Part shown: positions 23,816 through 49,178 of the stretch, in pieces | How positions within the stretch are numbered: the stretch's first letter is position 1 | Layout of the letters: each line of letters opens with the position of its first letter | From: Escherichia coli | GTDB taxonomy: Bacteria; Pseudomonadota; Gammaproteobacteria; Enterobacterales; Enterobacteriaceae | Direction: 5' to 3' (one strand) | Assembly (NCBI RefSeq): GCF_044324785.1 | Contig: NZ_CP172127.1 | DNA: 64,000 bases | Notes under the pieces: model-generated | What the model saw: only the letters and a program-made list of their open reading frames with translations | What the model was told of the DNA's origin: nothing | Database searches by the model: none | Position numbers and translations under genes: made by a program

Positions 23816-23824
23816 AGGGTAAAG

Positions 23825-24710: not shown

Positions 24711-24724
24711 TACCGAAAAAGTGA

Positions 24725-24753
24725 CAAAAAAGCGGGGAATCCCCGCTTTTTTT
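24725..24753. terminator. bidirectional intrinsic terminator between convergent slyD and slyX
   Basis: A-run, gcgggg-aat-ccccgc stem-loop, T-run (aaaaaagcggggaatccccgcttttttt). Confidence 0.8.
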
Positions 24754-24758
24754 ACGCC

Positions 24759-24977: not shown

Positions 24978-25057
24978 GATTCACCTCTTTTGTCGAATGG
25001 TTGCCGCGGATTCTACTTAACTTTGCCGCCCGAGACAGCACTCATTTCGCGGTCATC

Positions 25058-25085
25058 GAAACTAATTTAAACAAAAAGAGTCTGA
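25058..25085 (+). promoter_or_regulatory. putative sigma-E promoter of fkpA
   Basis: -35 GAAACT (25058-25063), 17 nt spacer, -10 TCTGA (25081-25085), close to the GGAACTT-N16-TCTGA consensus; about 110 bp upstream of fkpA. Confidence 0.45.
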
Positions 25086-25197
25086 AAATAGATGATAATA
25101 GGGCGTGTCTGTATGTAGATTTGTTCGACAACGCTTTATAGTACCCTTCTGATAATAGTTAACCCTGGGGTGAGATGCCCCGATCCTGGAGATATGG

Positions 25198-26010: not shown

Positions 26011-26020
26011 GCATTAAGAA

Positions 26021-26049
26021 CCGCCGCCTGACCAGGCGGCGGTTTTTTT
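26021..26049 (+). terminator. fkpA intrinsic terminator
   Basis: ccgccgcc-tgacca-ggcggcgg stem-loop followed by ttttttt. Confidence 0.85.
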
Positions 26050-26176
26050 ATTACAGGCCGGATATAATTAGTGCTGGAAAGCGGAACCTCCGCTGTATTA
26101 ATTTAGTTACCCGCATCATTAATGAGCCTGCCCTGAAAAGTTAACGACAGGCTCCTGAAAAGGAGTGTTTTTTTTC

Positions 26177-27284
<1,108 letters not shown>

Positions 27285-27285
<1 letters not shown>

Positions 27286-27644
27286 TGAAACGAATTGCGT
27301 TTGTTTTTTCTACTGCGCCTCATGGTACAGCTGCTGGTCGGGAAGGTTTAGATGCTTTACTGGCAACTTCCGCATTAACTGACGATCTGGCTGTCTTCTT
27401 TATTGCTGATGGCGTTTTTCAGCTGTTGCCAGGACAAAAGCCCGATGCAGTGCTGGCGCGTGATTACATTGCCACTTTTAAATTGTTGGGTCTGTACGAC
27501 ATTGAACAGTGCTGGGTTTGTGCGGCTTCACTGCGCGAACGCGGGTTAGGTCCGCAGACATCCTTTGTTGTCGAAGCCACGCCGCTCGAAGCAGATGCCT
27601 TACGCCGCGAACTCGCCAACTACGATGTTATTTTGAGGTTTTGA
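27285..27644 (+). CDS. tusC: tRNA 2-thiouridine synthesis protein TusC
   Basis: 119 aa ORF, DsrF-like; start overlaps the tusD stop. Confidence 0.93.
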
Positions 27645-27651
27645 GGCGTTT

Positions 27652-27939
27652 ATGCTGCATACATTACATCGTTCACCCTGGCTGACGGATTTTGCTGCGC
27701 TGCTGCGTCTGCTCAGTGAAGGCGACGAACTGCTATTATTGCAAGATGGCGTAACTGCCGCAGTTGACGGTAACCGCTACCTTGAAAGTCTGCGTAATGC
27801 CCCCATTAAGGTCTATGCCCTGAACGAAGACCTTATTGCCCGCGGTTTGACTGGTCAAATTTCGAACGATATCATTCTCATTGACTATACTGATTTCGTC
27901 AGACTTACGGTTAAGCACTCCAGCCAGATGGCCTGGTGA
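27652..27939 (+). CDS. tusB: tRNA 2-thiouridine synthesis protein TusB
   Basis: 95 aa [28 protein letters not shown], DsrH-like. Confidence 0.93.
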
Positions 27940-27961
27940 TGGCGGGATCGTTGTATATTTC

Positions 27962-28439
<478 letters not shown>

Positions 28440-28520
28440 TGGTTCTCCGTTAAGTAAGGCCAAACGTTTTAACTTAAATGTCAAACTAAACTCGTAGAGT
28501 TTTGGACAATCCTGAATTAA

Positions 28521-29006
<486 letters not shown>

Positions 29007-29090
29007 TCCCTTCGGAGTTTTAGTCACCAGGCGGGCGCTTCCAGTAAGCAGCCCGCTTTGGGCTACTTAAATTGAACGCCTAAAAGATAA

Positions 29091-31217
<2,127 letters not shown>

Positions 31218-31230
31218 GCCTAAGGGTTAA

Positions 31231-32472
<1,242 letters not shown>

Positions 32473-32496
32473 TTACACGTTAATTAGTTTCGAATT

Positions 32497-32523
32497 AAAA
32501 AGGGCGCTTCGGCGCCCTTTTTG
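32497..32523 (+). terminator. str operon (tufA) intrinsic terminator
   Basis: agggcgc-ttcg-gcgccct stem-loop followed by ttttt. Confidence 0.85.
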
Positions 32524-32569
32524 CATTTGTTGACTGCATTTCTTATTCGTACTGTCAGAACGAATAAAT

Positions 32570-32617
32570 TATTCATATTTAAAATATCAATTCAATTTAA
32601 TATTTTAAATATGAATA
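32570..32617. repeat. perfect 18 bp inverted repeat with 12 bp spacer in the chiA upstream region
   Basis: tattcatatttaaaatat (32570-32587) and its exact reverse complement atattttaaatatgaata (32600-32617). Confidence 0.9.
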
Positions 32618-32763
32618 TTTCTGTTTTTAAAATGCTTCATTTGTCAGGCTTTTTTCTTATTTTTAATGCCGCACTTTAATTCATATTGAAGGGTTCTCGT
32701 AAAACGTAAATAATTCCTGCGTAGGACTTTTGTTTTGCAGTTTTTACGTCACAAGGGATTATA

Positions 32764-35466
32764 ATGAAATTAAATATATTTACTAAATCTATGATTGGTA
32801 TGGGGCTGGTGTGTTCCGCTCTGCCAGCATTGGCAATGGAAGCATGGAATAACCAACAAGGTGGTAATAAATATCAGGTTATTTTCGATGGCAAAATTTA
32901 TGAAAATGCCTGGTGGGTTTCTTCTACAAATTGCCCGGGAAAAGCAAAAGCAAATGATGCAACTAACCCATGGCGTTTAAAGCGTACCGCGACAGCTGCT
33001 GAAATTAGTCAGTTTGGCAATACACTTTCCTGCGAAAAGAGCGGCAGCTCATCTTCTTCAAATTCAAATACGCCTGCATCCAATACGCCGGCTAATGGCG
33101 GTTCGGCTACACCAGCACAGGGCACTGTTCCGTCTAATTCTTCTGTAGTTGCCTGGAATAAACAGCAGGGCGGTCAGACCTGGTATGTCGTCTTTAATGG
33201 TGCGGTATATAAAAATGCCTGGTGGGTAGCCTCTTCTAACTGCCCGGGTGATGCGAAAGGCAATGATGCCAGCAACCCATGGCGTTATGTTCGTGCCGCT
33301 ACGGCAACGGAAATCTCAGAAACCAGTAATCCACAGTCCTGTACTTCAGCACCACAGCCTGCGCCGGATGTGAAACCGGCACCGGACGTTAAACCGGCTC
33401 CTGATGTTCAGCCAGCCCCAGCTGATAAGTCAAACGACAACTATGCTGTCGTAGCCTGGAAAGGTCAGGAAGGTTCTTCTACATGGTACGTTATCTACAA
33501 CGGCAGCATTTATAAGAACGCCTGGTGGGTAGGCGCGGCAAATTGCCCAGGCGATGCGAAAGAAAACGATGCCAGCAACCCATGGCGTTATGTTCGCGCG
33601 GCAACGGCAACAGAAATCAGCCTGTATGGTAATCCGGGTTCCTGTTCCGTTAAGCCGGATAATAATAGCGGTGCTGTGACTCCGGTTGATCCAACTCCGG
33701 AAACACCGGTAACTCCAGTTACTCCAACTCCGGATAATAACGAGCCATCAACACCAGCGGATAGCAGTAACGATTACTCACTGCAGGCGTGGAGTGGCCA
33801 GGAAGGTAGCGAAATTTACCATGTTATCTTCAATGGTAATGTTTATCAGAATGCCTGGTGGGTTGGTTCTGAAGATTGCCCACGTGGCACTAGTGCAGAA
33901 AACTCCAATAACCCATGGCGTCTCGTGCGTACAGCTACCGCTGCGGAAATGAGTCAGTACGGTAACCCGACTACCTGTGAAATTGATAATGGCGGCGTCA
34001 TTGTTGCGGATGGTTTCCAGGCCAGCAAAGCGTACAGCGCGAACAGCATCGTAGATTATAACGATGCACATTATAAAACCTCTGTCGATCAAGACGCATG
34101 GGGCTTTGTCCCGGGCGGCGATAACCCGTGGAAGAAATACGAACCGGCGAAAGCATGGTCCGCTTCCACCGTGTACGTGAAAGGTGATCGCGTTGTTGTT
34201 GATGGGCAGGCTTATGAAGCGCTGTTCTGGACGCAAAGCGACAACCCTGCTCTGGTTGCGAACCAAAACGCCACCGGTAGCAATAGCCGCCCGTGGAAGC
34301 CGTTAGGTAAGGCTCAGAGCTATAGCAACGAAGAGCTGAATAATGCGCCGCAGTTTAATCCAGAAACGCTTTATGCCAGCGATACGCTGATTCGCTTTAA
34401 CGGTGCGAACTACATTTCTCAGAGTAAAGTGCAGAAAGTTTCTCCTTCTGACAGCAACCCGTGGCGTGTTTTTGTTGACTGGACCGGAACCAAAGAACGT
34501 GTAGGTACGCCGAAGAAAGCGTGGCCGAAACACGTTTATGCACCGTATGTTGACTTTACGCTGAATACGATCCCGGATCTGGCTGCGCTGGCTAAGAATC
34601 ATAACGTCAACCACTTCACGCTGGCGTTTGTGGTGAGTAAAGATGCGAACACCTGTCTGCCGACATGGGGTACCGCTTACGGTATGCAGAATTACGCTCA
34701 GTACAGCAAAATCAAAGCTCTGCGTGAGGCTGGCGGCGATGTGATGCTGTCTATCGGTGGTGCTAACAACGCTCCGCTGGCTGCTTCCTGTAAGAACGTA
34801 GACGATCTGATGCAGCATTATTATGACATCGTTGATAACCTGAACCTCAGAGTCCTGGACTTCGATATCGAAGGCACCTGGGTTGCGGATCAGGCATCTA
34901 TTGAACGCCGTAACCTTGCTGTGAAGAAAGTGCAGGATAAATGGAAGTCAGAAGGCAAAGATATTGCTATCTGGTACACCTTGCCAATTCTACCGACTGG
35001 CCTGACGCCGGAAGGGATGAATGTCCTGAGCGATGCCAAAGCGAAAGGTGTTGAGCTGGCGGGTGTGAACGTGATGACAATGGACTACGGTAATGCGATT
35101 TGTCAGTCTGCAAATACCGAAGGCCAGAACATTCACGGTAAGTGTGCAACGTCTGCGATTGCCAACCTGCATTCACAATTGAAAGGCCTCCATCCCAACA
35201 AGAGCGATGCAGAAATTGACGCTATGATGGGTACCACGCCGATGGTTGGCGTGAACGACGTTCAGGGCGAGGTGTTCTATCTCTCTGATGCTCGTCTGGT
35301 CATGCAGGATGCGCAGAAGCGTAATCTCGGTATGGTTGGTATCTGGTCAATCGCGCGCGACCTGCCGGGCGGCACTAACCTGTCTCCGGAATTCCACGGC
35401 CTGACTAAAGAACAGGCACCGAAGTACGCATTTAGCGAAATCTTCGCGCCGTTTACTAAGCAATAA
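32764..35466 (+). CDS. chiA: periplasmic/secreted endochitinase (multi-domain, GH18-type catalytic domain)
   Basis: 900 aa ORF: signal peptide, four about 70-aa repeats, two CBM5/12-like motifs, C-terminal catalytic domain (DFDIEG). Confidence 0.93.
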   Translation: MKLNIFTKSMIGMGLVCSALPALAMEAWNNQQGGNKYQVIFDGKIYENAWWVSSTNCPGKAKANDATNPWRLKRTATAAEISQFGNTLSCEKSGSSSSSNSNTPASNTPANGGSATPAQGTVPSNSSVVAWNKQQGGQTWYVVFNGAVYKNAWWVASSNCPGDAKGNDASNPWRYVRAATATEISETSNPQSCTSAPQPAPDVKPAPDVKPAPDVQPAPADKSNDNYAVVAWKGQEGSSTWYVIYNGSIYKNAWWVGAANCPGDAKENDASNPWRYVRAATATEISLYGNPGSCSVKPDNNSGAVTPVDPTPETPVTPVTPTPDNNEPSTPADSSNDYSLQAWSGQEGSEIYHVIFNGNVYQNAWWVGSEDCPRGTSAENSNNPWRLVRTATAAEMSQYGNPTTCEIDNGGVIVADGFQASKAYSANSIVDYNDAHYKTSVDQDAWGFVPGGDNPWKKYEPAKAWSASTVYVKGDRVVVDGQAYEALFWTQSDNPALVANQNATGSNSRPWKPLGKAQSYSNEELNNAPQFNPETLYASDTLIRFNGANYISQSKVQKVSPSDSNPWRVFVDWTGTKERVGTPKKAWPKHVYAPYVDFTLNTIPDLAALAKNHNVNHFTLAFVVSKDANTCLPTWGTAYGMQNYAQYSKIKALREAGGDVMLSIGGANNAPLAASCKNVDDLMQHYYDIVDNLNLRVLDFDIEGTWVADQASIERRNLAVKKVQDKWKSEGKDIAIWYTLPILPTGLTPEGMNVLSDAKAKGVELAGVNVMTMDYGNAICQSANTEGQNIHGKCATSAIANLHSQLKGLHPNKSDAEIDAMMGTTPMVGVNDVQGEVFYLSDARLVMQDAQKRNLGMVGIWSIARDLPGGTNLSPEFHGLTKEQAPKYAFSEIFAPFTKQ
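32836..33996 (+). repeat. four tandem about 70-aa domain repeats within chiA separated by Ser/Pro/Thr-rich linkers
   Basis: Repeats of the form AWN.QQGG..Y.V.FNG.VY.NAWWV....CPGDAK.NDASNPWR.VR.ATA.E.S...NP..C; linker at 33358-33420 encodes PAPDVK-PAPDVK-PAPDVQ. Confidence 0.85.
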
Positions 35467-35473
35467 ATGTGTT

Positions 35474-35506
35474 GGCGATACCTTCCGGTATCGCCGCATT
35501 TTTTGT
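35474..35506 (+). terminator. chiA intrinsic terminator
   Basis: ggcgatacc-ttcc-ggtatcgcc stem-loop followed by gcattttttg. Confidence 0.8.
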
Positions 35507-35634
35507 CAATGGGCTACTTTTGGTAGCCCATTATTTTTATTCATATTTCTATTCTTTGCTTAAAAAAGAGTCTTTCCGTAATTGAAATAAGAACTATTTT
35601 CATTTATTTTTGAAGAAAGTATACGGGAGTCTCT

Positions 35635-35829
35635 ATGTACGTTTGTCTTTGTAATGGTATCAGCGATAAAAAAATTCGTCAGGCTGTGCGCCAGTTTTCC
35701 CCCCACTCGTTCCAGCAATTAAAAAAATTTATTCCGGTCGGCAATCAGTGCGGTAAATGTGTCCGGGCCGCGCGTGAAGTGATGGAGGATGAATTAATGC
35801 AGTTGCCGGAGTTTAAGGAGTCCGCATAA
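35635..35829 (+). CDS. bfd: bacterioferritin-associated ferredoxin
   Basis: 64 aa ORF MYVCLCNGISDKKIRQAV...CGKC, [2Fe-2S] cysteine pattern. Confidence 0.95.
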   Translation: MYVCLCNGISDKKIRQAVRQFSPHSFQQLKKFIPVGNQCGKCVRAAREVMEDELMQLPEFKESA

Positions 35830-35900
35830 ACGGAGTGTGTTTTTTGACTTACTCGTAAGCCGTTCTACGCTTCAAAGAGTGGAAGCGAAGGAGTCAAAAA

Positions 35901-36377
35901 ATGAAAGGTGATACTAAAGTTATAAATTATCTCAACAAACTGTTGGGAAATGAGCTTGTCGCAATCAATCAGTACTTTCTCCATGCCCGGATGTTTAAAA
36001 ACTGGGGTCTCAAACGTCTCAATGATGTGGAGTATCATGAATCCATTGATGAGATGAAACACGCCGATCGTTATATTGAGCGCATTCTTTTTCTGGAAGG
36101 TCTTCCAAACTTACAGGACCTGGGCAAACTGAACATTGGTGAAGATGTTGAGGAAATGCTGCGTTCTGATCTGGCTCTTGAGCTGGATGGCGCGAAGAAT
36201 TTGCGTGAGGCAATTGGTTATGCCGATAGCGTTCATGATTACGTCAGCCGCGATATGATGATAGAAATTTTGCGTGATGAAGAAGGCCATATCGACTGGC
36301 TGGAAACGGAACTTGATCTGATTCAGAAGATGGGCCTGCAAAATTATCTGCAAGCACAGATCCGCGAAGAAAGTTGA
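35901..36377 (+). CDS. bfr: bacterioferritin
   Basis: 158 aa [39 protein letters not shown]. Confidence 0.97.
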
Positions 36378-36384
36378 GCCGTGT

Positions 36385-36405
36385 CGGGAGGGAGAACCCT
36401 CCCGG
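36385..36405. terminator. hairpin between convergent bfr and gspO
   Basis: cgggaggg-agaac-ccctcccg stem-loop abutting the gspO stop; no clear T-run. Confidence 0.4.
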
Positions 36406-37083
36406 TTAATACGAGATCCAGGCCAGATACCCCAGGTTTATCATGCTGCCGAGCGCAAGCCACGGGCCGAATGCGATAGTGGTTATAGTCCGGCGTTGCA
36501 GAAGTTGTGAAACGATGGCGTAACCAATGCCACCCAGTGAGGCAATCAGCAGTATCATTGGCAACGTTTGCCAGCCACACCATGCGCCTGCAGCGGCCAG
36601 TAGCTTGAAATCACCGTAGCCCAATCCCTCTTTGTGACAAACTAACCAGACGCCCCAGTAAACACACCACAGCACCCCATAGCCCGCTACCGCGCCGTAA
36701 ACCGCATCATGTAAATCAATTAATCCATACTGCGCATTAAATACCAAGCCAAGCCAGAGCAGCGGTAAGGTGAGTTTGTCGGGCAGGAGCTGAGTGCGAA
36801 AATCAATAACACTGAGCGTGAGTACGAAACAGAAATAGAGAAAGAGTGCGCCAGTCACGATGGGCGTGAAAGGTGCCAGGGCGCAGGCGATAGCAGCAGC
36901 AACACAAAGTATCAGGGGCACTGTATCATTCCAGGCATATTTTTTTTGCCGGAAATGAACCAATACCTGGCGAAACGTTAACGCCGTTTTATCCTCCAAA
37001 GGCGAGAGGTGATAGGCCATGGCATTAACAAAATAACCTGCAATAAAACCAACCAGAATGAAGAGCGGCAGTAGCATTGCCAT
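36406..37083 (-). CDS. gspO: prepilin peptidase (type II secretion)
   Basis: 225 aa polytopic membrane ORF at the distal end of the gsp operon. Confidence 0.9.
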   Translation of the reverse strand: MAMLLPLFILVGFIAGYFVNAMAYHLSPLEDKTALTFRQVLVHFRQKKYAWNDTVPLILCVAAAIACALAPFTPIVTGALFLYFCFVLTLSVIDFRTQLLPDKLTLPLLWLGLVFNAQYGLIDLHDAVYGAVAGYGVLWCVYWGVWLVCHKEGLGYGDFKLLAAAGAWCGWQTLPMILLIASLGGIGYAIVSQLLQRRTITTIAFGPWLALGSMINLGYLAWISY

Positions 37084-37544
37084 TATTGTTGCTCCCTGAA
37101 GGACAAATGCTTGAGGGTGATCTCTTCGTTTCCGGCAAGAGTAAACTGAAGATCTTCAATAACAATACCGTGTGTTATCTGTGCCGTAGTGAGCCAGCGG
37201 GAGACGTTTTCGAGGGGAGCTGTGACAGGATGAATTGTCAGAGTATTGTCCGGACCGTTTTCCAGCGTGATAGTCAAATTCTCACGTTTTGCTTCCTCGA
37301 GAAGGATATTTTTGATGGGCTGCGTAAGCGCAGGATGACCAAGTAAACCATGGGTGCTCGCTTGATCCTGCATCCATTTGATGTCCTTCTTAATTTTTTG
37401 CGCGTGGGACTGATGCTCTGCAATGTAGGTATCTATCGGTTTTATCACCCCAAGCCAACAAAAAACGCCGAGCGAGAGAACCGCCAGTGCCGCAACGAGC
37501 TGTTTTTCCGATGTGGATTTTTCTGCCCACCATGATTTAATCAT
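37083..37544 (-). CDS. gspM: type II secretion protein M
   Basis: ORF track 161 aa from 37568; an ATG at 37544 (MIKSWWAEKSTSEKQ, 153 aa) lies directly after the gspL stop and is the more likely start. Confidence 0.85.
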   Translation of the reverse strand: MIKSWWAEKSTSEKQLVAALAVLSLGVFCWLGVIKPIDTYIAEHQSHAQKIKKDIKWMQDQASTHGLLGHPALTQPIKNILLEEAKRENLTITLENGPDNTLTIHPVTAPLENVSRWLTTAQITHGIVIEDLQFTLAGNEEITLKHLSFREQQ

Positions 37545-38707
37545 TTCCCTGAGCTCCTTACTGTCCATACGCCACTGACCGGATCTTTTTCTGTTTTTTC
37601 CATCGGAAGCCAGGACTGTGTTAATTCACAGAAACGATCGATATTGGCTTCACTCTTAGCACTCATTTTTAAGGTCAGCGACTTTTGCTTCTGGCTATAG
37701 TTCGCCTCCATTAACTGCAGTTCAGGGTGTTCCAGCAGAAGTGTTTGTAAATGATAGAGCAACGGCACAGCTTCAGGATATTGCTGAGCGAGTTGCTGCT
37801 TAAAGTAAAAACGAAAGTTGTGGGTGCGTTTGATTTGCGGGAAATAACGTTGCCAGGTTTCTTGCTGTTGTTGCTGAAGTTGATCTTCAATCTTAAGCGT
37901 ATGCCAGAGCGCGATGCCCCGGCTGCCAACAAAAGAAAGAATGGCGAGAACGAGACAGCTTACTGCCAGGCGGGCGAGCCATTTTCCCGATTTTCTTACA
38001 GTTTTCTGTTTACGAAAAACACCATGCAGCATGTCATAGCGCTGGAATGCAATATCGGCAGAATACAAACTCAGTGATGGTATTTCAGGATGCTGGATAA
38101 GTGGATTGGCCACTGCAACGCCGTGAGGTGCTACACCATAACAAAGCATATTCTCAGGCGGAAACTGGGCAGCAAGATGCTGTAACCAGTGTTCATCCAG
38201 TTCGTTGAAGGCATGTGCGGCACTGCGAATGAGCCAGCTTGTTTGCTGGTTAACCAGAGTCCAGCTATCTACTTCCCAGGGAAGATAGCAGCCATCTGGC
38301 AAAACCCGCGTCACGTTGAGTCCGGCAGTATGTAAACGCTCAAGATAGCGACTGAGTTTCTCCGACTGAATGCCTATCACCTCGACACTTTCGTTTTGTT
38401 TATCGACAACCGTCCAGTGCCAGTCCTGGGTGTTGTCGGGTAACGTCTCCTCTGCCAGCCATTGCAATGTTTGTGCGGTGAGTTTGTATTTGACGTTGGG
38501 CAGCGTGAGGGAACGATATAAAAGACCCTCTGGTGGGATCAAAAGATGAACATTTCCGGCACCGGGCTGATCGGCCAGCGACTCCAGCGGAAGATCGTCT
38601 GTGAGCGTATGTACCGAAGATACGCTATCTGCGGAGAACGTCATCCATTCCCAATGCTTACGCAGCGTCGAGGAAGAACGTATAACCATCAACGATTCAG
38701 GCATCAC
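37541..38707 (-). CDS. gspL: type II secretion protein L
   Basis: 388 aa ORF (387 if the second Met is used); operon position. Confidence 0.88.
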   Translation of the reverse strand: MMPESLMVIRSSSTLRKHWEWMTFSADSVSSVHTLTDDLPLESLADQPGAGNVHLLIPPEGLLYRSLTLPNVKYKLTAQTLQWLAEETLPDNTQDWHWTVVDKQNESVEVIGIQSEKLSRYLERLHTAGLNVTRVLPDGCYLPWEVDSWTLVNQQTSWLIRSAAHAFNELDEHWLQHLAAQFPPENMLCYGVAPHGVAVANPLIQHPEIPSLSLYSADIAFQRYDMLHGVFRKQKTVRKSGKWLARLAVSCLVLAILSFVGSRGIALWHTLKIEDQLQQQQQETWQRYFPQIKRTHNFRFYFKQQLAQQYPEAVPLLYHLQTLLLEHPELQLMEANYSQKQKSLTLKMSAKSEANIDRFCELTQSWLPMEKTEKDPVSGVWTVRSSGK

Positions 38708-38718
38708 GATCCTTATGA

Positions 38719-39702
38719 TTAGTAGAGTTGCAGCGTACGCCGATAGATTTGGGCGCTCTGCTGTTTACGGTTGAAAAAAATATGGCTTTGCCATCCCTGG
38801 GATTGTTCGTCGCTGATACTTTCCGTACTCAGCGTAAAATAGCGGCTATAGGGAAAGAGATGCCCTTTCACCTGAGCTACCAGAGGCTTCACGCCGGAGA
38901 AATCCTGCTGCGCCCAGTAAAGAAATGCATCCGTGGTTAGCCAGCCTTCCCTGGGCCTTTTTTGTAATAAGACCCGAGCGTCAGCATCCGTGATGTTATT
39001 GAGGAATAACGCTCTGAAGAGCGGAATATCGTTCTCAGTAAGCATATTAAGATTGATGCTAAGTTCCGTGGTTGGGAGAACGCAGACATACGGGATAAGT
39101 CGCTGATAGATGTTTTCGGTTATGCCTTTTATCTGACGCAATTCGCCGGTCAGAAAAAGCATCTGATTGGCGCTATGGCGAGGCGGCGTTTGGCTTTGGT
39201 AAAAGTTATCTTCTGCGCCGTGAAAGCGTGGCGAATCATCGGCATCAATATAGTCAGCGATTGATTGCACGATCTCATCGGTGTTTCCGCGATCGATACC
39301 GGCGTTAATCAGCAGCGCACTGAATACCTGGGTGGGAAAATCAGGGGAAGCCAGCGGGTCGTCAGAGATTTTTGCTAACGCATTGAGATTAAAACAGTGC
39401 TGGGCATCGCGTAACTGCCACTTCACTGTATTGCCATCTTCCAGCTGCAACTGTTGCGGCTGTGCCCAGTACTGCTGCAACGTGGTCTGTCTGTCGTTAT
39501 CTTTAACGTCCTGGGTGAGGCTGGCAAGCGCAAGTTTCTCCGCCAGTTCAATATCATATTGCCGTTGCAGATGATGGTTTACCTGGCGGGTTCGCTGAAG
39601 CTGGCTGTGAAAACTGAGCGTCATGTCTGCTGCCAGAGCAGCCATGAGCGCCAGTAGCATCAGCACAATGAGCAGCGCGACGCCGCGTTGTTCATTATTC
39701 AT
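38719..39702 (-). CDS. gspK: type II secretion minor pseudopilin K
   Basis: 327 aa [28 protein letters not shown]. Confidence 0.9.
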   Translation of the reverse strand: MNNEQRGVALLIVLMLLALMAALAADMTLSFHSQLQRTRQVNHHLQRQYDIELAEKLALASLTQDVKDNDRQTTLQQYWAQPQQLQLEDGNTVKWQLRDAQHCFNLNALAKISDDPLASPDFPTQVFSALLINAGIDRGNTDEIVQSIADYIDADDSPRFHGAEDNFYQSQTPPRHSANQMLFLTGELRQIKGITENIYQRLIPYVCVLPTTELSINLNMLTENDIPLFRALFLNNITDADARVLLQKRPREGWLTTDAFLYWAQQDFSGVKPLVAQVKGHLFPYSRYFTLSTESISDEQSQGWQSHIFFNRKQQSAQIYRRTLQLY

Positions 39703-40282
39703 GGTTATTATTCCCGGCCTGAGTCTGAGCTGGCGACTCTTCTCTTGCTAATTGCTCAGGTAATGCAAAACGACACTGTAGTGCCCCATATTGCTGAGTC
39801 TTCAGATGTAGCGTGACTGAGAGAGGATGTTCTTTGCTTTCCCCGCTGTTACTTTCCAGAAGAAAGCTCTCGACATGTTCCAGCATCGCCTGGGCAGGTT
39901 GATCCTTCCTGCCATCCACAGAAGTACGAACAGCACGGTAAAGCGTATGATTTCGTAGATACCAGTGAACTGTGAGTAAGGTTTGTGCTTCACTGAGAGG
40001 AGCCAGCGGATCACGACTTTGCGTGGTAAAAATAGCTTCTTCACCCAACACCATGATCTTGTCCGTACTCCGATTCCTCCGGGCGACCAATTGCAGGAGA
40101 TCGTTATCAAGAATGGTGATGGTGCGCTGTAGCTGATTGAACTGCTGGATTTCTTTCTGTGAACGTTGATGCAACTCGGAAGCTTGCGAAAAAATCATAA
40201 ACGCCAGCACGCTAAGCATTGAGAAAATCGCCAGCGCCGCCATGACCTCCAGCAATGTGAAACCCTGCTGGCGATTAATCAT
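39695..40282 (-). CDS. gspJ: type II secretion minor pseudopilin J
   Basis: 195 aa [23 protein letters not shown], prepilin N-terminus. Confidence 0.9.
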
Positions 40283-40652
40283 CTTGTGCCTGCCCGGATT
40301 TATTATCGATGCTTTGATAACGCGTAAGCGAGGTTGTCTGACCGCTGGGTAATGTCACCGTTATGGTGCGTTCCAGAAGCGTGCCGTCTTTGCTTGAGTG
40401 GATATCGCTGCGCCAGTTCCACTCTTCGCCATTTATTAACTCTTTGCCAGAACTGGACGTGTTTTCCTCGCCGAATGAATCTTGTGACTGAAGCTGGTTA
40501 TCCGCTATCCACAATGCCAGCGTCTCGTTGCGCATTCGCTCGATGGCATTTCGTTGCCCTTGCATACTGCTCATTAAAGTCAGAGCAACAGCGGTGAAAA
40601 TACTCATCGCCAGTAAGACTTCAAGCAGTGTCATCCCTGATTGTTTGTTCAT
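40275..40652 (-). CDS. gspI: type II secretion minor pseudopilin I
   Basis: 125 aa from the ATG at 40652 ([19 protein letters not shown]), overlapping the gspH stop as ATGA; the ORF-track start at 40691 is an extension. Confidence 0.88.
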
Positions 40653-41158
40653 GGGCGGGTATCTCTGACGAGCGTTTGATCCAGGGGCCATGATCCTGAA
40701 CAGACTAACGTTAGGAGCGGCTCACCGGTCCCGGCGTTAGCCATCAACAAAGAGAAGGGCGTGATTTGTCCGTCGGCCAGAACCACCACCTGCGGTTGGT
40801 TGCTGTCATCAGGTTTAAATGGCTGAAGTTGAATTGAGAGTTCTTCACCCCAGTCATTTTTGCTCTCGTCTGCGGCATCTTCTTGTAATGGAACCCAGCG
40901 CCAGGCTGATGGTGTTTTGCCCGGTACCATAATGCGCCATGCTGAATCAGAGAAATGGATACCGACAGGCTGACCACTCAGCGTGGCGCGGTCGATGGCT
41001 AATTCAAGTGCAGCGGTAAACCGCGCCGCTGTTTCGCGCGCACGAGTGTTGGCGGTATCTTCCCGACCATATGTGAAGAGCACCACACTTGCCGTGATAG
41101 CGACCAGCGCCAGCACCAGCATCATCTCCAGCAGGGTAAACCCGCGTTGCTGATTCAT
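40649..41158 (-). CDS. gspH: type II secretion minor pseudopilin H
   Basis: 169 aa [22 protein letters not shown]. Confidence 0.9.
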
Positions 41159-41165
41159 CGCTGAC

Positions 41166-41603
41166 TTACTTTTTCTTCTTGCTCAAACCCCAGTTGGTGA
41201 TGTCATCCTCGGTTCCCATTTCACCATCGGGTCCTGCTGAAAGCAGATCGTATGCACCATGTTCACCAGGATTAACGAGGACATAATCATTGCCCCAGGG
41301 ATCGGCAGGCAGACGCTTGATATAACCTTCTTTGTTATAGTTTGCGGCCAGCGGTGGTAGTGTCGGTGCTTCGACTAAGGATTCAAGTCCCTGATTTGTG
41401 GTTGGATAGCGATGATTGTCGAGCTTGTACATATCCAGGGCGTTTTCCAGCGCCACAATATCGCTGACGGCTTTTTGATTATCCGCCTTTTCTTTATTGC
41501 CCATCAGGTTGGGAACCACCAGGCTGGCAAGTACGCCGATAATGACGATCACCACCATAATTTCCAGTAATGTAAAACCGCGTTGCTTATCCGTTGCGCG
41601 CAT
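41166..41603 (-). CDS. gspG: type II secretion major pseudopilin G
   Basis: 145 aa [29 protein letters not shown]. Confidence 0.93.
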   Translation of the reverse strand: MRATDKQRGFTLLEIMVVIVIIGVLASLVVPNLMGNKEKADNQKAVSDIVALENALDMYKLDNHRYPTTNQGLESLVEAPTLPPLAANYNKEGYIKRLPADPWGNDYVLVNPGEHGAYDLLSAGPDGEMGTEDDITNWGLSKKKK

Positions 41604-41612
41604 TGTTTTTCC

Positions 41613-42809
41613 TTAGTTAATCATTGAGTTAAGTTGAAGAAGAGGTTGGAGTACCGACACGACAATAAACAGGACGATCAGTGCCATCGTAATAATGAGC
41701 GCTGGCTCGAAGATGGAGAGCGTTAAGGCGATCCGATTTTGTTGGAGTGTCTCCTGGTTATCTGCGGCTCTGACCATTAACGTGCCGAGCTGCCCGCTTT
41801 TTTCGCCAGAGGCCACCATGTAGAGCATCATCGGCGGGAAAATTGCGGTTTGTTCCAGCGAAAGATGAATGCTGTTACCCTGGCGGACGTTCTCTGCCGC
41901 ATTTGCCAGACGCTTGCGGATTTCGAGGTTGCTGAGACTTTCGGTGGACAAATTCATCCCATCCAGCAGAGGGACGCCGCTGGATTGCAAAATACTTAAA
42001 GTGCGGAGATAGCGTGCGCTGTTAATGGTGCAAATCAGCGGGCCGATGAGTGCAACGCGTAGCAATATGGCATGAAAACGGTGGCGGTTATTGCCGCGTT
42101 TTAACCAGAGCCAGAAACCTACAGCGACAATAAACACTGTCGCTAGTAATGTCGGGCCGGTATGTTGCAACGTGTCGCTCAGACCTAAAAGAATGCGTGT
42201 ACTCAGCGGCAGTTGCTGCTTCATATGCACGAACTGTTCGGTAATTTTGGGCACGACAGCAGTGAGGAGAATAATCACGACCACAATCGCCACCGCAGTC
42301 AGCATGCAGGGGTAGATCAGCGACTGAATGAGTTTGCTGCGGATTTTCTGCCGATTTTCATTGTAATCAGCCAGTTTTTCCAACACCGGGGCCAGCAGCC
42401 CGCTCTTTTCGCCCGCTTTAACCAGGGTACGGTAGAGCGAATCGAAAAGCGTGGGAAAATGTTGTAACGCATCGGAAAGGGGATGCCCTTCAAGGATGGC
42501 GCTGCGTACCTGATTTAACACATCAGCCAGTCGTTTATTACTGCTTTGTTGACCGATTACGGCAAGGCTCTCTTCCAGAGGTAATGCCGCTGCGCTTAAG
42601 GTTGCCAACTGCCGGGTGAAAAGCGTCAGTTCACTATGGCTGATCCTCGGGCGACGTGTTTTTACTCCCGAACTTTTTTGGGGGCGAATATCCAGCAGGA
42701 AAAGCCCTTCTTCACGCAGCCGCAGTCGTGCCTGACGTTCATCGTTAGCATCAATGATCCCTTGCAATTTTTGACCATCCTGGGTCATGGCGCGATAGCG
42801 ATAATTCAT
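41613..42809 (-). CDS. gspF: type II secretion inner-membrane platform protein F
   Basis: 398 aa ORF; start overlaps the gspE stop. Confidence 0.93.
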
Positions 42810-44287
42810 GCTTCGCTCTCCAGCGTGGCACTGGCGACGCGCATAACCTCATCCCAGGAGGTGTCACCGCTTATCACTTTTTGCAGGCCATTTTTGATTA
42901 AGGCATTGTGTTGTTGCCGGACCAGTCGCTCCAGTGCTTGTTCATCCACATTTTCATGAATAGCGGCCCGCAATTCCGGCGTCACCACCATCATTTCGTG
43001 GATCGCCATGCGCCCCTGATAGCCGGATTGATGGCAATGAGGGCAGCCTACGGGAGTGCCAATTGTCGTCACCGCGAGCTGATGATGTTTAAACATCTGC
43101 GCTTGTTGCGGCGATACAGGCGTGAATTGTCGGCATTGCGGACACAGACGACGAACCAGACGTTGCGCGATAATCCCTGCCAGTGAAGACGAAAGCAGGA
43201 ATGATTCGACGCCCATGTCGCGTAGCCGGGTGACTGCGCCTGATGCACTGTTAGTGTGGAGTGTTGAGAGTACCAGATGGCCTGTGAGCGAGGCCTGAAC
43301 CGCAATTTGCGCGGTTTCTGTATCACGAATCTCCCCCACCATGACGACATCCGGGTCCTGGCGAAGTATGGCGCGCAGGCCGCGAGCGAAAGACATATCC
43401 ACGCGGGTATTCACCTGCGTTTGTCCTATGCCTTCCAGTTCATATTCCACGGGATCTTCTACCGTCAGAATATTACGGCCAGGGGTATTAAGCGCCGAAA
43501 GAATGGCGTAGAGCGTGGTGCTTTTACCGGAGCCTGTCGGCCCTGTTACCAGGATAATACCGTGCGGAAGCTGAATGAGATTTTCTAAATCCTGTTTATC
43601 CGCTGCCGTCATCCCCAGGTTGTTCAATGAAAGCTGGAGGCTGTTTTTATCCAGTAGGCGGAGCACAGCGCGTTCACCATAGATGGATGGCAGTGTGGAT
43701 ACGCGGACATCTATGTTACGTCGCCCGATACGCAAACTGATTCTTCCATCCTGTGGAATACGTTTTTCGGCGATATCAAGACGAGCCATGACCTTAATTC
43801 GGGAGATAAGCAGTGCCGCCAGTTTTTTGTTGGGCTGTAAAATTGTCCGCAAAACGCCGTCGATGCGAAAACGGATCGACATTGTTTTTTCATAGGTTTC
43901 AATGTGGATATCGGAGGCGGTTTCTTTGATGGCCTCACTCAAAATAGCATTGATCAAGCGGATAACGGGTGCCGCTGAATCTTCATTCAGCAGATCTTCA
44001 TTTGCGGGCATCTCTTCCGAAAGCGAGAGAAGATCGACGGATTGATCGATATCCTGCGCAATCTGTTGCGACTCACCGGTATTCTGATGGAATACCGCTT
44101 CCAGCCGGGCTTCGAAATCAGCCTGTGACAAACTGGTCATGGTCTGGCACTGACCAACCTGACGCTGAATATCGAGTAACCGCTCGAATGGCGTATCGGC
44201 GAGATAAATAATCTCGCCCTCTGAATAGAGATAACCAATTCGTTGTGCCAGCGCCCAACTGGCGGGGTACGGTGAGTGAATTTTCAT
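42806..44287 (-). CDS. gspE: type II secretion ATPase E
   Basis: 493 aa ORF, Walker [13 protein letters not shown]-terminal CxxC pairs. Confidence 0.95.
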
Positions 44288-44296
44288 AAGAATGCC

Positions 44297-46249
44297 TCAC
44301 CGTGACGATGGCGCAGGGGCGTGACTGTTGAACGTGTTCTCATTCAGCACCGGCAAATCTTCCGAGCCAACCAGCGCTTTTGATTTCCCGTCGATTCGCA
44401 GCTGTTGCTCCTGACGGTAGCGGGTGTATTTCTCTTTTGACAGTGAGCGATAAACATCATCGTCACGGATAATCGTCGGGCGGATAAATACCATCAGGTT
44501 GCGTTTAGCGCGCTCGGTCGAGGTATAGCGGAAGAGTTGTCCCACTAAAGGAATATCGCCAAGCAGAGGAACCTTTGACACTTGCTCTTTAGAAAAATCA
44601 TCCAGCAATCCGCCCAGGACCACCGTTTCACCGGTTTTGACCAGCACGGCATTTTGAATAGTTCGGGTGTTAAATGTCGGGCCGAGCGTCGAATTAGACG
44701 AAGAGTCAACGCTGGAGACTTCCTGCTCTATTTCGAGCAACACCGCGTCGCCTTCATTGACCTGCGGAGTGACTTTGAGTTTTGTCCCCACCGTTTTGCG
44801 TTCGACTGTATTAAAGACGTTATCCCCAGAAGTGGTCTGGGAGCCGGATAGCACCGGCACATCCTGCCCAACGTTGAAGGACGCGAGTTTATTATCCAGC
44901 GTTACGATGCTCGGGGTGGCGAGGATGTCATTTTTATTATTACTGGCCAGCGCAGTCAACAATACGCCCCAGTCGCCATTGAAGAAGCCTGCGGCCATGC
45001 CATTGTAGGCGCTAAACATATCCCAGGCAGGATTCGCGCTGGTGATCCCACCATTCTTTTTATAATCAGCCACACCTTGCGCAGCGTTAAAAATCGGTAA
45101 TCCCGTATTGGTAAATTGCTGTGTGCCAACGTTTTTATTCGCCCATTGCACGCCGAGGTTGAGTCCATTTCCATCCTGAACTTCAACGATGATTGCCTCA
45201 ACCAGCACCTGTGCACGGCGAATATCCAGACGTGCAATTACCGTGGCGAGTTTCTCCTGGACGGGCTGGTCAGCGGTAATGACCAAAGAGTTGGTCTGTT
45301 CATCAGCGGTAATGGCGACATTATCCATCGCAGAAGTAGAAGAAGGCTTACGCGAATTCCCTTTTTCATCTTTCAGCTTTTCGGAAACACCGGTTAACAC
45401 TTCCACCAGATTCGTGGCCTTGGCATATTTCAGGTAATAGACCCGGGTATTTCCTTCCTCGCTCTCTTCAACATCAAGTGTTTTCAGTAACGAGGTGATG
45501 CGCTGACGTGCCTTTTCCGGCCCGCTGATAATAAGTGAGTTCGTTCGCTTATCTGCCACAATCTTCGCGGAAAGGAGGGCTGGCATCTGGCTTTTACCGT
45601 GGCTTTCGCTGATTAATTGATTCAAAATTTCGGCGAGATCTTCCGCTGACGCATATTCCAGATGAATAATTTGCTGCTTCTCTGTGCCGATGACATCAAC
45701 GCGCTTTATGACTTCAATCAGTTTATTAATGGTGGAGGCACGACCGGTCAGAATAAGAACGTTGGAGGGTTCATAATGCACGACATTGCCGACGCTGCCG
45801 CCATCCATCATTTGGCGAAGCAGAGGGGCAAGATCACGAGCAGGAACGTTCTCAAGCGGTACGATACGAGTGACCAACTCATCACCAGCGCCAGGACGAG
45901 AACTGTCAGCAATCATCCCTGGTGATGTTTTTACATTAGCTGAGCGCACCACTTTCAGAAAACCATTGTCCAGCGTGATCACGGAATAACCGTAAAGATC
46001 AAGAATACTTAAAAAGAACTGGTAGTACTCCTGTTGGCTAAACGTATCATTACTGCGTACGGAAATGGTTCCCTGTACCGAAGGGTCGATCAGGATCGTT
46101 TTGCCAAGATGCTGACCCACTATTTCCACGAACTGGCGGATATCGGCGTTATTGAAGTTAGCGCCGTATTGTTCGTTCTCAGCGTGCCCTGCACAAGGCA
46201 TGAGTAGTGCTGCCAGCAAGCAGCAGGTGATTTTATTGAGTCCTTTCAT
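44297..46249 (-). CDS. gspD: type II secretion secretin D
   Basis: ORF track 654 aa from 46261; the ATG at 46249 ([23 protein letters not shown], 650 aa) is the more likely start. Confidence 0.9.
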
Positions 46250-47048
46250 GACGCTGTCCATTCATTCCTGTAAGTTCCGCGACGGAAACATTTATCAAGC
46301 GGGGTACGCCGTTGCGACGAATTGTAAACTGAGCACTTTGTTGAGTTAGCAGTAAACTTAATGCCTGTGAAACCTCATCAGGGTGGGTCAGCGAAAGATT
46401 ATTGATCCTGAGGGCGATATCCCCTGGTTGTAGCAAGCTGGTGGTAAATGCGTTTAGGCCCTGACGAGGGTTCAATCGAAGCCCGTATATCTGTTCTCCA
46501 TCACGTATAGGCGTGGCGATAATATAATCAGCGAGTACATTTTGACTTTCCGAATCAGGCTGCTTGATGATGTCAGGTAGCCCTGGATGGAGTGTTACTT
46601 TTTCGTAATGCCCGTGAGTTTCAAACACAACGCTGGTTTTATTTATTTTTCTAATAAACGTTCCCGGCGCTGACTCAAGGGCTTCGTTGAGGGAGTATCG
46701 CTTTTGTTCGCTCCCCTCATTAATTAAGACAAAAGAAGTCTCATCATTCGATGTGAGTACAATACCATTAAGCGCTATAGAGAGCTTCGGTGTTTCCTGA
46801 TTAACTGCCACGGGATTTGCATCTTTTACCCCAGCATGATTATCGTTGCGCCATAAAGCGGCAAGGCTGAACTCAGACTGAAATGCATTTGTTGGTTGAT
46901 TAATGATCTGTCCATTTTTAACTATAGTTGTATGGAAATAATTCACATTAAAAATAATCAGCCCTATACTTATAAATATAATCAATATATTGATGGCAGC
47001 ATCTTTATTATGATTCGCCAGATGGAAGGGGAAGCGTAGTGTGGGCAC
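46233..47048 (-). CDS. gspC: type II secretion protein C
   Basis: 271 aa ORF with N-terminal TM segment; first gene of the gspC-O operon. Confidence 0.9.
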
Positions 47049-47227
47049 GATGTATGTTCTAATAAAATAGATTGGGTGGGTTGTATATTGACGTTAGTAT
47101 AAATAGTATTAATGCCGCTTGCATGAATCAAGCAAAATTTATTTATATTAGTAATATGTATTTAATTAATAAATGCATACATTATTTTTATGATTAAGGA
47201 TAATCAATAATTAAAACAGGAAGTTCT
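47049..47227. promoter_or_regulatory. AT-rich divergent gspC / gspA control region
   Basis: 179 bp AT-rich gap between divergent operons. Confidence 0.5.
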
Positions 47228-48697
47228 ATGTCTACGAGAAGAGAAGTTATTCTTTCCTGGTTACGTGAGAAACGTCAGACCTGGCGTCTGTGCTATTTGT
47301 TGGGTGAGGCTGGAAGTGGAAAAACCTGGCTGGCGCAGCAACTACAAAAAGATAAACATCGCCGTGTGATTACTTTAAGCCTCGTTGTTTCCTGGCAAGG
47401 TAAGGCCGCATGGATCGTTACCGACGATAATGCGGCTGAACAGGGCTGCCGTGACAGCGCCTGGACGCGAGATGAGATGGCGGGTCAATTACTGTATGCG
47501 CTTCATCGAACTGATAGTCGCTGCCCTCTTATTATTATTGAAAATGCTCACCTGAATCACCGCCGCATACTGGATGATCTCCAACGCGCGATATCTCTTA
47601 TTCCTGACGGTCAATTTTTGCTGATCGGCAGACCCGATCGAAAAGTCGAACGTGATTTTAAAAAACAGGGCATTGAACTTGTCTCGACAGGACGTCTGAC
47701 GGAGCACGAGCTTAAGGCAAGCATCCTTGAAGGTCAGAATATTGACCAGCCCGATCTCCTTTTAACTGCCAGAGTTCTGAAACGGATAGCTTTATTATGT
47801 CGGGGAGATCGCAGAAAGCTGGCGCTTGCCGGCGAAACAATTAGCTTATTACAGCAAGCCGAGCAGACCAGCGTTTTCACTGCAAAACATTGGCGAATGA
47901 TTTACCGCGTATTAGGTGATAACCGCCCCCGGAAAATGCAGCTTGCCGTGGTGATGAGTGGAACCATTATCGCACTTACCTGTGGTTGGCTACTGCTGTC
48001 CTCTTTCACAGATCCGTTCCCCGTTCCTGCGTGGCTGGTACCCGTAACGCCAGTAGTTAAACAAGATATGACTAAGGATATTGCTCATGTAGTGATGCGC
48101 GATAGTGAGGCGCTAAGCGTGTTATACGGCGTATGGGGGTACGAGGTCCCAGCTGATTCGGCCTGGTGCGATCAGGCAGTAAGAGCGGGGCTGGCATGTA
48201 AAAGTGGGAATGCTTCTTTACAAACATTGGTAGATCAGAATTTGCCCTGGATCGCATCGCTTAAAGTCGGGGACAAAAAATTGCCTGTTGTGGTCGTTCG
48301 CGTCGGTGATGCTACCGTTGATGTCCTCGTAGGGCAGCAAACCTGGACGCTGACACATCAATGGTTTGAGTCGGTATGGACGGGTGATTATCTTCTGTTA
48401 TGGAAAATGTCGCCGGAAGGGGAGAGTACCATTACGCGTGATAGCAGCGAGGAAGAGATTCTCTGGCTGGAAACGATGTTAAACCGCGCATTGCATATTT
48501 CGACAGAACCTTCGGCAGAGTGGCGTCCCTTGTTGGTAGAAAAAATAAAGCAATTTCAAAAAAGCCACCACTTGAAAACTGACGGTGTTGTTGGCTTTTC
48601 AACGTTAGTACATCTCTGGCAGGTGGCAGGGGAGAGTGCCTACTTATATCGGGATGAAGCAAATATTTCCCCGGAAACAACAGTGAAGGGGAAATGA
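47228..48697 (+). CDS. gspA: type II secretion accessory protein A (AAA+ ATPase, peptidoglycan-binding C-terminus)
   Basis: 489 aa ORF, Walker A LGEAGSGKT. Confidence 0.92.
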   Translation: MSTRREVILSWLREKRQTWRLCYLLGEAGSGKTWLAQQLQKDKHRRVITLSLVVSWQGKAAWIVTDDNAAEQGCRDSAWTRDEMAGQLLYALHRTDSRCPLIIIENAHLNHRRILDDLQRAISLIPDGQFLLIGRPDRKVERDFKKQGIELVSTGRLTEHELKASILEGQNIDQPDLLLTARVLKRIALLCRGDRRKLALAGETISLLQQAEQTSVFTAKHWRMIYRVLGDNRPRKMQLAVVMSGTIIALTCGWLLLSSFTDPFPVPAWLVPVTPVVKQDMTKDIAHVVMRDSEALSVLYGVWGYEVPADSAWCDQAVRAGLACKSGNASLQTLVDQNLPWIASLKVGDKKLPVVVVRVGDATVDVLVGQQTWTLTHQWFESVWTGDYLLLWKMSPEGESTITRDSSEEEILWLETMLNRALHISTEPSAEWRPLLVEKIKQFQKSHHLKTDGVVGFSTLVHLWQVAGESAYLYRDEANISPETTVKGK

Positions 48698-48698
48698 C

Positions 48699-49118
48699 AT
48701 GTTTGAATTCTATATCGCCGCGCGTGAGCAGAAAGAAACAGGTCACCCTGGTATCTTCTCCCGACAAAAACACAGCACCATAATATATGTCATTTGTTTA
48801 TTGCTGATTTGCCTGTGGTTTGCAGGAATGGTGTTGGTTGGTGGGTATGCCAGGCAGCTATGGGCGCTTTGGATAGTAAAAGCAGAAGTCACAGTAGATG
48901 CTGAAACGCCCGCTTTTAAACAATCAACACAACACTATTTCTTCAAAAAACAGCCACTCCCCGTCGTCGAATCCGTCGAGGAGGAAGATGACCCCGGCGT
49001 CGCGGTTGAGAATGCCACCTCTTCTTCTGAAGACGAAGAAAATACTGTAGAAGAAAGCGACGAGAAAGCCGGTTTAAGAGAGCGTGTCAAAAATGCGCTG
49101 AACGAACTTGAGAGATAA
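48699..49118 (+). CDS. gspB: type II secretion accessory protein B
   Basis: 139 aa ORF with TM segment and acidic C-terminus. Confidence 0.88.
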   Translation: MFEFYIAAREQKETGHPGIFSRQKHSTIIYVICLLLICLWFAGMVLVGGYARQLWALWIVKAEVTVDAETPAFKQSTQHYFFKKQPLPVVESVEEEDDPGVAVENATSSSEDEENTVEESDEKAGLRERVKNALNELER

Positions 49119-49150: not shown

Positions 49151-49178
49151 TTGCGTTCGGTGGTTAAGTATGTATAAT
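49151..49178 (+). promoter_or_regulatory. S10 operon promoter
   Basis: TTGCGT (49151-49156), 16 bp spacer, TATAAT (49173-49178); predicts a leader of about 171 nt. Confidence 0.7.

Follow-up and report, generated by a model that had tools for sequence, protein, structure and literature searches.

What fills the space between the str and S10 ribosomal operons of Escherichia coli, and what lies there in the strains that lack this filling? The question is raised by a 64,000-nucleotide stretch of E. coli DNA (assembly GCF_044324785.1, contig NZ_CP172127.1), called here the window, in which positions 32473-49118, called here the block, carry a chitinase gene, the bfd-bfr gene pair, and a cluster of type II secretion system (T2SS) genes. 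The order is tufA-chiA-bfd-bfr-gspO to gspC (minus strand)-gspAB-rpsJ, as established from the open reading frames (ORFs) together with homology mapping and searches against protein families, and the block, flanked by tufA (31288-32472) and rpsJ (starting at 49356), spans the gap between the two operons. It is very probably the chromosomal T2SS-alpha with its linked cargo gene chiA, filling the entire str-S10 space as one of two diverged cassettes. The locus itself is already known, as the 'silent' T2SS-alpha of E. coli with ChiA, and an initial annotation of the window was right to call it not novel; the gene content, order, strands, and coordinates given there also agree with the ORF listing, homology, and family models.

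The identity of the block follows from comparison with E. coli K-12. It aligns with positions 3453508-3470144 of the K-12 derivative CJ236 at 100% coverage and 97.5% nucleotide identity, with the same genes, order, strands, lengths (ChiA apart), and chromosomal position, and gspA-O has been placed between rpsJ and bfr in published work (PMC3032704). This near-identity to the K-12 locus, which extends to its control region, supports the initial annotation in matching the block to the cryptic, H-NS-silenced T2SS described for E. coli with ChiA. The best match to the block among complete genomes, that of strain MEI003, reaches only 98.4%, which makes this an uncommon allele of a common locus; the window is chromosomal E. 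coli DNA, and its flank at 20000-32472 has matches of 98.4-99.2% in 5422 of 5426 complete genomes of the species. Synonymous divergence (dS) from K-12 spans 0.012 to 0.176 per gene, more than 10-fold along the block, and this unevenness suggests that the long cassette is a mosaic of recombined alleles. The value of 0.012 belongs to gspI, bfr and gspO stand at 0.02, and gspG, gspE, gspJ, and gspD fall at 0.12-0.18.

DNA of gspO to gspC is present in 3161 of the 5426 complete E. coli genomes (58%), 3120 of which cover at least 80% of it, and 2981 genomes have coverage of 80% or more over the full 16.6 kb. With the gsp genes in 58% of complete genomes, the earlier description of the block as accessory-like is correct. 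Prevalences in the literature are comparable (47% and 45% when scored by gene, ~70% when scored by protein; PMC11486038), and the cluster was present in no B1 strain examined in another study (PMC3032704). In O157:H7, the interval instead reads tufA-bfd-bfr-(155-aa A24 peptidase)-rpsJ, a short cassette of 1.5 kb against the long cassette of 16.6 kb, and this short form is found at 95% identity or more in ~2250 genomes. Across tufA and the hairpin of its terminator (32496-32523, plus strand; a 12-bp stem and T-run in the terminator scan), the window and the O157 short haplotype are 99.4% identical; this identity ends at 32524 (boundary between 32524 and 32525), and resumes at 49172, at 100%, at a -10 TATAAT. 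The right boundary region, 49151-49178 on the plus strand, was placed by alignment and blastn against the short haplotype; given its position ~171-184 nucleotides upstream of rpsJ and established knowledge of the S10 leader, we take it to be the S10 operon promoter. Both haplotypes have the -35-like TTGCGT and the -10 TATAAT, with a diverged spacer between the two elements; the differing spacer could give the two cassettes slightly different S10 promoter strengths.

Between these boundaries, only bfd (35635-35829, plus strand; bacterioferritin-associated ferredoxin; Pfam Fer2_BFD) and bfr (35901-36377, plus strand; bacterioferritin; TIGR00754, 280 bits) align between the long and short haplotypes, at 77.5% nucleotide identity (Bfr 90% and Bfd 88% at the protein level). 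That genomes without the block simply deleted it, as the A24 peptidase beside bfr might suggest because it could pass for a gspO stump, is an account that we consider very improbable. The gene chiA, which lies beyond bfd-bfr, is absent as well; dS between long and short types is ~1.5 for bfr and saturated for bfd, against 0.23-0.32 for the same genes between E. coli and Escherichia ruysiae; and the divergence reaches the tufA terminator on one side and the S10 promoter spacer on the other. The peptidase of the short cassette has 41% identity to GspO; it is one of a family of orphan peptidases, 150-190 aa long and widespread, and is 66-68% identical to Salmonella 'HopD'. The short arrangement of Salmonella and Citrobacter, tufA-bfd-bfr-hopD-rpsJ, shares the backbone and flanks of the window, differing in having no chiA or gsp genes, a bfd-bfr pair diverged by ~20% in nucleotides, and an orphan peptidase of 155-197 aa; this arrangement, seen in Salmonella Heidelberg, is also the allele of 42% of complete E. 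coli genomes. Nonsynonymous divergence (dN) of Bfd/Bfr from Salmonella is 0.013/0.024 for the short type and 0.086/0.095 for the long type, and long and short types differ by 0.085/0.098, which places the short type much nearer to Salmonella. Judged by these alignments, genomes without the block carry an ancient alternative cassette and are not deletion derivatives. In favor of deletion, Citrobacter includes loci with the orphan peptidase as well as loci with the full cluster, so that such deletions may occur in other lineages, and in-place deletion of the gsp cluster probably does happen in other genera. Two homologues of the orphan peptidase (79-87% identity) that were considered as sister-species copies come from fragmented-gene assemblies and were not used for inference: one (L100) has flank genes 98-99% identical to the window and looks like E. 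coli, its low identity probably being sequencing error, and the other (L099), with flanks ~92% identical, may be another Escherichia lineage with the short cassette.

The presence/absence polymorphism could also mean that the block is a genomic island recently inserted by a mobile element. Its composition points mildly in that direction: GC content is 0.486 against 0.508 for the window, ~2 points lower; GC content at third codon positions is 0.51 in the 17 block genes against 0.58 in 32 non-ribosomal flank genes (Mann-Whitney p = 0.005); and the codon adaptation index (CAI), with the window's own ribosomal and elongation factor genes as the reference set, rises from 0.32 in the gsp genes through 0.46 in the non-ribosomal flank genes to 0.72 in the ribosomal genes. 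Its AT-rich control regions are also of the H-NS type typical of foreign DNA. The comparison of GC and codon usage with the flanks that the initial annotation had proposed therefore does reveal a difference, only a small one, and the block is mildly atypical in composition and not island-like. A tRNA scan found none in the block as an island mark, no flanking direct repeats were found at the block, NCBIfam and Pfam models identified no integrase or transposase among its 17 ORFs, and Rfam at the gathering threshold gave nothing in the block, its only match being an alpha-operon ribosome-binding-site element elsewhere in the window. Alleles of the block within E. coli differ by ~3%, and the 'empty' state holds a diverged bfd-bfr pair and another peptidase.

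The species comparison tells further against a recent island. A GspL search returned an 86%-identical group named E. ruysiae, and contigs of this species carry tuf-chiA-bfd-bfr-gspO to gspC-gspAB, the same architecture at the same site. Identity to the window is 96% for bfr, 95% for bfd, 92% for chiA, and 92-95% for gspD to gspG, mostly 83-88% for gspH to gspO (93% for gspI), and 77-78% for gspC and gspA. A recent insertion by a mobile element is, on all this, extremely improbable. What was implied earlier about an acquired module thus holds as to accessory status, and recent acquisition is unsupported, since marks of mobility are absent and E. ruysiae shares both block and site; likewise, the synteny comparison proposed with it finds that the block is not universal, Salmonella having the short form, and that E. 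ruysiae has the same block in the same place. On one E. ruysiae contig (JAINAZ010000019.1, 16223-21164), tuf stands beside chiA and is then followed by coaA-birA-murB, the neighbors of E. coli tufB, an order that reflects either an inversion mediated by tufA and tufB or a join made at the tuf repeat during assembly.

How old, then, is the two-state arrangement, and how does it persist? Among the matches listed, the tufA-bfd-bfr-...-rpsJ backbone is found in all of 80 Enterobacterales loci, and what follows bfr takes one of three states: nothing extra in Morganellaceae, Erwiniaceae, and Serratia; an orphan peptidase in many Enterobacteriaceae; and a full gsp cluster convergent on bfr in Yokenella, Trabulsiella, Citrobacter braakii, C. 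amalonaticus S646, Enterobacter sichuanensis, Chimaeribacter, and Rahnella. The chiA-bfd-bfr-gsp layout also occurs in a distant relative (L097, GspL 60% identical) and in the metagenome-assembled genome UBA5654. Within the same listed matches, Citrobacter loci in the full-gsp and orphan-peptidase states have similar bfr sequences, and a Kosakonia oryziphila contig runs chiA-bfd-bfr-gspO and then directly into a gspD fragment. The inter-operon slot has probably long been host to a T2SS in Enterobacterales, with Escherichia holding two ancient alternative cassettes, which homologous recombination in the near-invariant tufA and rpsJ flanks would swap. Both cassettes have ~3% internal diversity and segregate at roughly 58:42. 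We lean, by a modest degree, toward the view that the whole str-S10 spacer is an ancient two-state cassette that can move with its own bfd-bfr alleles between lineages and even between genera. Some points temper this view. A neighbor-joining tree of Bfd and Bfr tends to group T2SS-linked alleles across genera, and being short and unbootstrapped it is suggestive only; within Escherichia, the species comparison covered E. coli and E. ruysiae, and either cassette may be the one native to the genus. The exact RpsJ protein lookup used for contexts in other species returned contigs almost exclusively from E. coli.

Our literature searches turned up no paper that describes this cassette dimorphism, which is not proof that there is none. 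If correct, the two-state cassette would replace the published reading of a 'gspO-rpsJ deletion', and the polymorphism might be kept up by selection, for example, through a host- or niche-dependent value of ChiA secretion. Carriers and non-carriers differ by a whole ancient cassette and not by a deletion, which matters for the reading of pangenome and genome-wide association study (GWAS) results and for isogenic controls. In a pangenome GWAS of mastitis isolates, for example, bfr and bfd were scored as 'accessory' in strain proportions exactly those of gsp and chiA; this scoring would be explained by the existence of two bfd-bfr alleles, 77.5% identical, that are each tied to one of the cassettes. 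The bfr and bfd matches in such studies may be linkage artefacts, or candidate co-factors, since the cassettes differ in their bacterioferritin and ferredoxin alleles. In more general terms, the locus is an example of a swappable accessory slot between strongly conserved operons.

Is the system that the long cassette encodes in use, or is it a decaying relic, silent because unused and intact here by chance? Several features could be taken to favor a relic: the term 'cryptic' in the literature (PMC5797941), the low codon adaptation already mentioned, the 42% of genomes without the cluster, and disrupted copies in some strains (L092, L088, and H75). In the damaged clusters, an insertion sequence (IS) element of the IS21 family together with ars genes has taken the place of the sequence as far as the 3' end of gspA, and gspD is split (L092, 2826-5342; L088, 938-2894); the cluster in H75 has an IS3 insertion. 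We nevertheless consider a relic very unlikely. All 17 block frames are full length against the lengths in the Prokaryotic Genome Annotation Pipeline (PGAP) annotation of MEI003, the closest complete genome, which served as the reading-frame reference, with no stop and no frameshift; all motifs are kept; and at least 80% of gspO-C is retained in nearly all carriers, as given above. By the Nei-Gojobori method, the gsp genes have dN/dS values well under 1, namely, 0.02-0.48 in the comparison with K-12 and 0.03-0.24 in that with E. ruysiae, where dS is 0.23-0.92. These ratios indicate that the gsp genes have been under purifying selection since at least the divergence of E. coli and E. ruysiae, which argues against a decaying relic and fits the published phenotypes of chiA mutants (PMC11390585, PMC11486038). 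The selection suggests that the 'cryptic' system is functional in natural settings, and T2SS-alpha is probably used in nature.

Block proteins were assigned with NCBIfam and Pfam models: NCBIfam equivalog models match above cut-off for Bfr and for GspL, GspK, GspI, GspH, GspG, GspF, GspE, GspD, GspC, and GspB, and Pfam identifies ChiA, Bfd, GspO, GspM, GspJ, and GspA. On the minus strand lie gspO (36406-37083), for a prepilin peptidase of 225 aa matched by Pfam Peptidase_A24 only; gspM (37083-37544; Pfam T2SSM; intact); gspL (37541-38704; TIGR01709); the minor pseudopilin genes gspK (38719-39702; NF037980), gspJ (39695-40282; Pfam T2SSJ and N_methyl, with TIGR01711 below cut-off), gspI (40275-40652; TIGR01707), and gspH (40649-41158; TIGR01708); the major pseudopilin gene gspG (41166-41603; TIGR01710), with the prepilin motif G-FTLLE; gspF, for the inner-membrane platform (41613-42809; TIGR02120, 547 bits); gspE, for the secretion ATPase (42806-44287; TIGR02533, 657 bits); gspD, for the outer-membrane secretin (44297-46249; TIGR02517, 648 bits, full length); and gspC (46233-47048; TIGR01713), with a GTG start, a GC content of 0.428, and an AT-rich 5' part. 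On the plus strand, gspA (47228-48697) encodes an AAA+ ATPase with C39-like and peptidoglycan-binding domains (Pfam AAA_22, GspA_C39-like, and PG_binding_1) and is followed by gspB (48699-49118; NF007250, 286 bits).

The core set, gspC to gspM and the peptidase gene gspO, is thus present in one cluster, and its motifs are kept. GspE has a Walker A motif (GPTGSGKS at 249), a Walker B motif (VVMVGEIRD at 314), and a tetracysteine zinc motif (CPQC at 382 and CPHC at 415); GspG, GspH, GspI, and GspJ have the prepilin motif G-F/M-TLLE at their N-termini along with an N_methyl or IV_pilin domain match, and the N-terminus of GspK is G-VALL, the usual form for GspK; GspO carries both catalytic aspartate motifs, DFRTQLLPD and GYGD. 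GspO would cleave the prepilin leaders of GspG to GspK, and GspE, GspF, GspL, GspM, and GspC would build a pseudopilus, which would drive folded ChiA from the periplasm out through the GspD secretin. In Aeromonas, ExeAB offers an analogy by which GspAB may help the secretin to cross the peptidoglycan.

Three absences qualify the picture of a complete T2SS. The ORF list, NCBIfam, and Pfam gave no pilotin (GspS/PulS or AspS) and no gspN within 32473-49118, and GspO has no A24_N_bact match in Pfam and no CxxC in a motif check. GspO is 225 aa in the K-12 derivative CJ236 as well, and the GspO of the distant cluster L097 (peptidase at 11627-12391) is 254 aa long with an A24_N_bact domain. Both the E. 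coli and E. ruysiae proteins, at 225 aa, are without the A24_N_bact/CxxC domain typical of prepilin peptidase/methyltransferases. Pilotin and GspN are accessory components, not found in every T2SS; with neither present and a short GspO, full function may rely on genes located outside the block, or the system may work differently from model T2SSs. The initial annotation had called the system intact and complete: intactness is borne out by frames and motifs, and completeness holds for the core set, though not for gspN, a pilotin, or the N-terminal domain of GspO.

Comparison with other T2SSs helps to place these absences. The Pul system of Klebsiella oxytoca and the Out system of Dickeya carry pulS or outS and an N gene. 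The block, unlike them, is without gspN and without a PulS/OutS-type pilotin, has a GspO without the N-terminal domain, and has the divergent gspAB; like them, it has core C-M and O, the prepilin motif, the tetracysteine GspE, and GspD, the secretins of Pul and Out being of the Klebsiella type (PMC3542185). The second T2SS of E. coli, T2SS-beta (yghJ/sslE-pppA-yghG-gspC-M; PMC3707838, PMC3542185), is also variably present; it lies at pheV, outside this window, and has SslE and LT as cargo, its own peptidase PppA, a Vibrio-type secretin, and the pilotin AspS/YghG.

The putative cargo gene, chiA (32764-35466, plus strand), is followed by two terminator-like hairpins (35473-35532, plus strand; terminator scan). 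It encodes a 900-aa secreted endochitinase/lysozyme (Pfam CBM_5_12 and Glyco_hydro_18) with a signal peptide, four N-terminal repeats of ~60 aa (DNA 32827-33951), a CBM5/12 chitin-binding module, and a GH18 domain in which the catalytic motif DxDxE is present as LDFDIE at 698. The protein is 98% identical in amino acids to ChiA of K-12, which has 897 aa, the difference being a 3-aa linker indel. At the five sites that define 'pathogenic' and 'non-pathogenic' ChiA in work on adherent-invasive E. coli (AIEC), namely, 362, 370, 378, 388, and 548, ChiA here has Q362, E370, A378, V388, and A548; K-12 has K, K, A, E, and V, and the LF82-like NRG 857C has Q, E, V, V, and E. The allele is of a mixed or 'other' polymorphism, with residue 548 (A) matching neither K-12 nor NRG 857C.

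In K-12, ChiA is secreted through the T2SS, according to the work of Francetic et al. (2000) as cited in later papers (PMC5797941, PMC3707838, PMC11390585), and T2SS-alpha is described as the chitinase-secreting and sole T2SS of that strain (PMC3707838). By this analogy, and with a signal peptide on ChiA and chiA linked to the gsp cluster, ChiA would be the protein exported by the T2SS of this strain. Published work on other strains has ChiA acting extracellularly as a chitinase and as an adhesin for host glycans. An association of the chiA and gsp genes with mastitis isolates and with fitness in mouse mammary glands has been reported, and deletion of chiA lowers adherence to mammary epithelial cells (PMC11390585); ChiA has also been linked to colonization by AIEC (PMC11486038). 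Both ChiA and T2SS-alpha are under study as colonization factors of Crohn's-associated AIEC and of bovine mastitis strains, and the present locus has practical value as a securely annotated, intact T2SS-alpha/ChiA module from a divergent lineage of E. coli.

Why would an intact system be called silent? The two control regions that the initial annotation had singled out as AT-rich, at 32524-32763 and 47049-47227, correspond to the two most AT-rich 150-nucleotide windows of the 64 kb (32565-32714 and 47085-47234), and the tufA-chiA and gspC-gspA spacers have the two lowest GC contents of 25 intergenic regions (0.296 and 0.235). The region upstream of chiA (32525-32763, plus strand) is ~73% AT, with a GC content of 0.271 for 32524-32763, and is 97.3% identical to K-12; an inverted-repeat search found a 24-nucleotide AT palindrome in it, at 32567-32620. 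The divergent gspC/gspA control region (47049-47227; 179 bp, 76.5% AT) has one mismatch to K-12 and carries, exactly, the primer sites at both ends and the proposed SlyA site, TTATATTAGTAA at 47143-47154, of a published electrophoretic mobility shift study (PMC5797941). The AT-richness continues into the 5' part of gspC, where the stretch 46868-47017 is 73% AT. In that published study, gspC-O is described as cryptic, repressed by H-NS, and thought to export ChiA, the product of another H-NS-silenced gene, and binding of SlyA at the gspCDEF promoter is reported (PMC5797941). By analogy with K-12, H-NS silencing of gspC-O and chiA would be expected in this strain: H-NS would coat the AT-rich chiA promoter region and the 179-bp gspC/gspA region, keeping both units silent in laboratory culture, and anti-silencers such as SlyA, or the loss of H-NS, would open both. 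Weighing the other way, a scan for TCGATAAATT, the high-affinity H-NS motif, in which 2 mismatches at most were allowed, gave no match upstream of chiA and one weak match in the gspC/gspA spacer, and is uninformative; both silencing and cargo are carried over here from near-identity with K-12.

Elsewhere in the window, several smaller departures from MEI003 and one expected element were observed. The IS3-family element IS1397 lies between yheT and yheS (18040-19507), with orfB at 18107-18829 and orfA at 18934-19464, both on the minus strand; the insertion is absent in MEI003 and replaces the last ~92 nucleotides of yheS, giving an altered YheS C-terminus. Compared with MEI003, argD (11002-12225) has a one-base indel close to its 3' end, and the resulting 407-aa frame differs in its C-terminal tail. 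Left of yhfL, positions 1-1565 have no match to yhfS, the neighbor of yhfL in MEI003, and hold strain-variable content, possibly the frl region. The Rfam element Alpha_RBS at 60076-60187 (102.7 bits), upstream of rpsM, is the expected alpha operon element. Finally, yhdN (63117-63485) is locally divergent, at 93.8% identity to MEI003, and the adjacent ribosomal genes stand at 99-100% and zntR at 98.1%.

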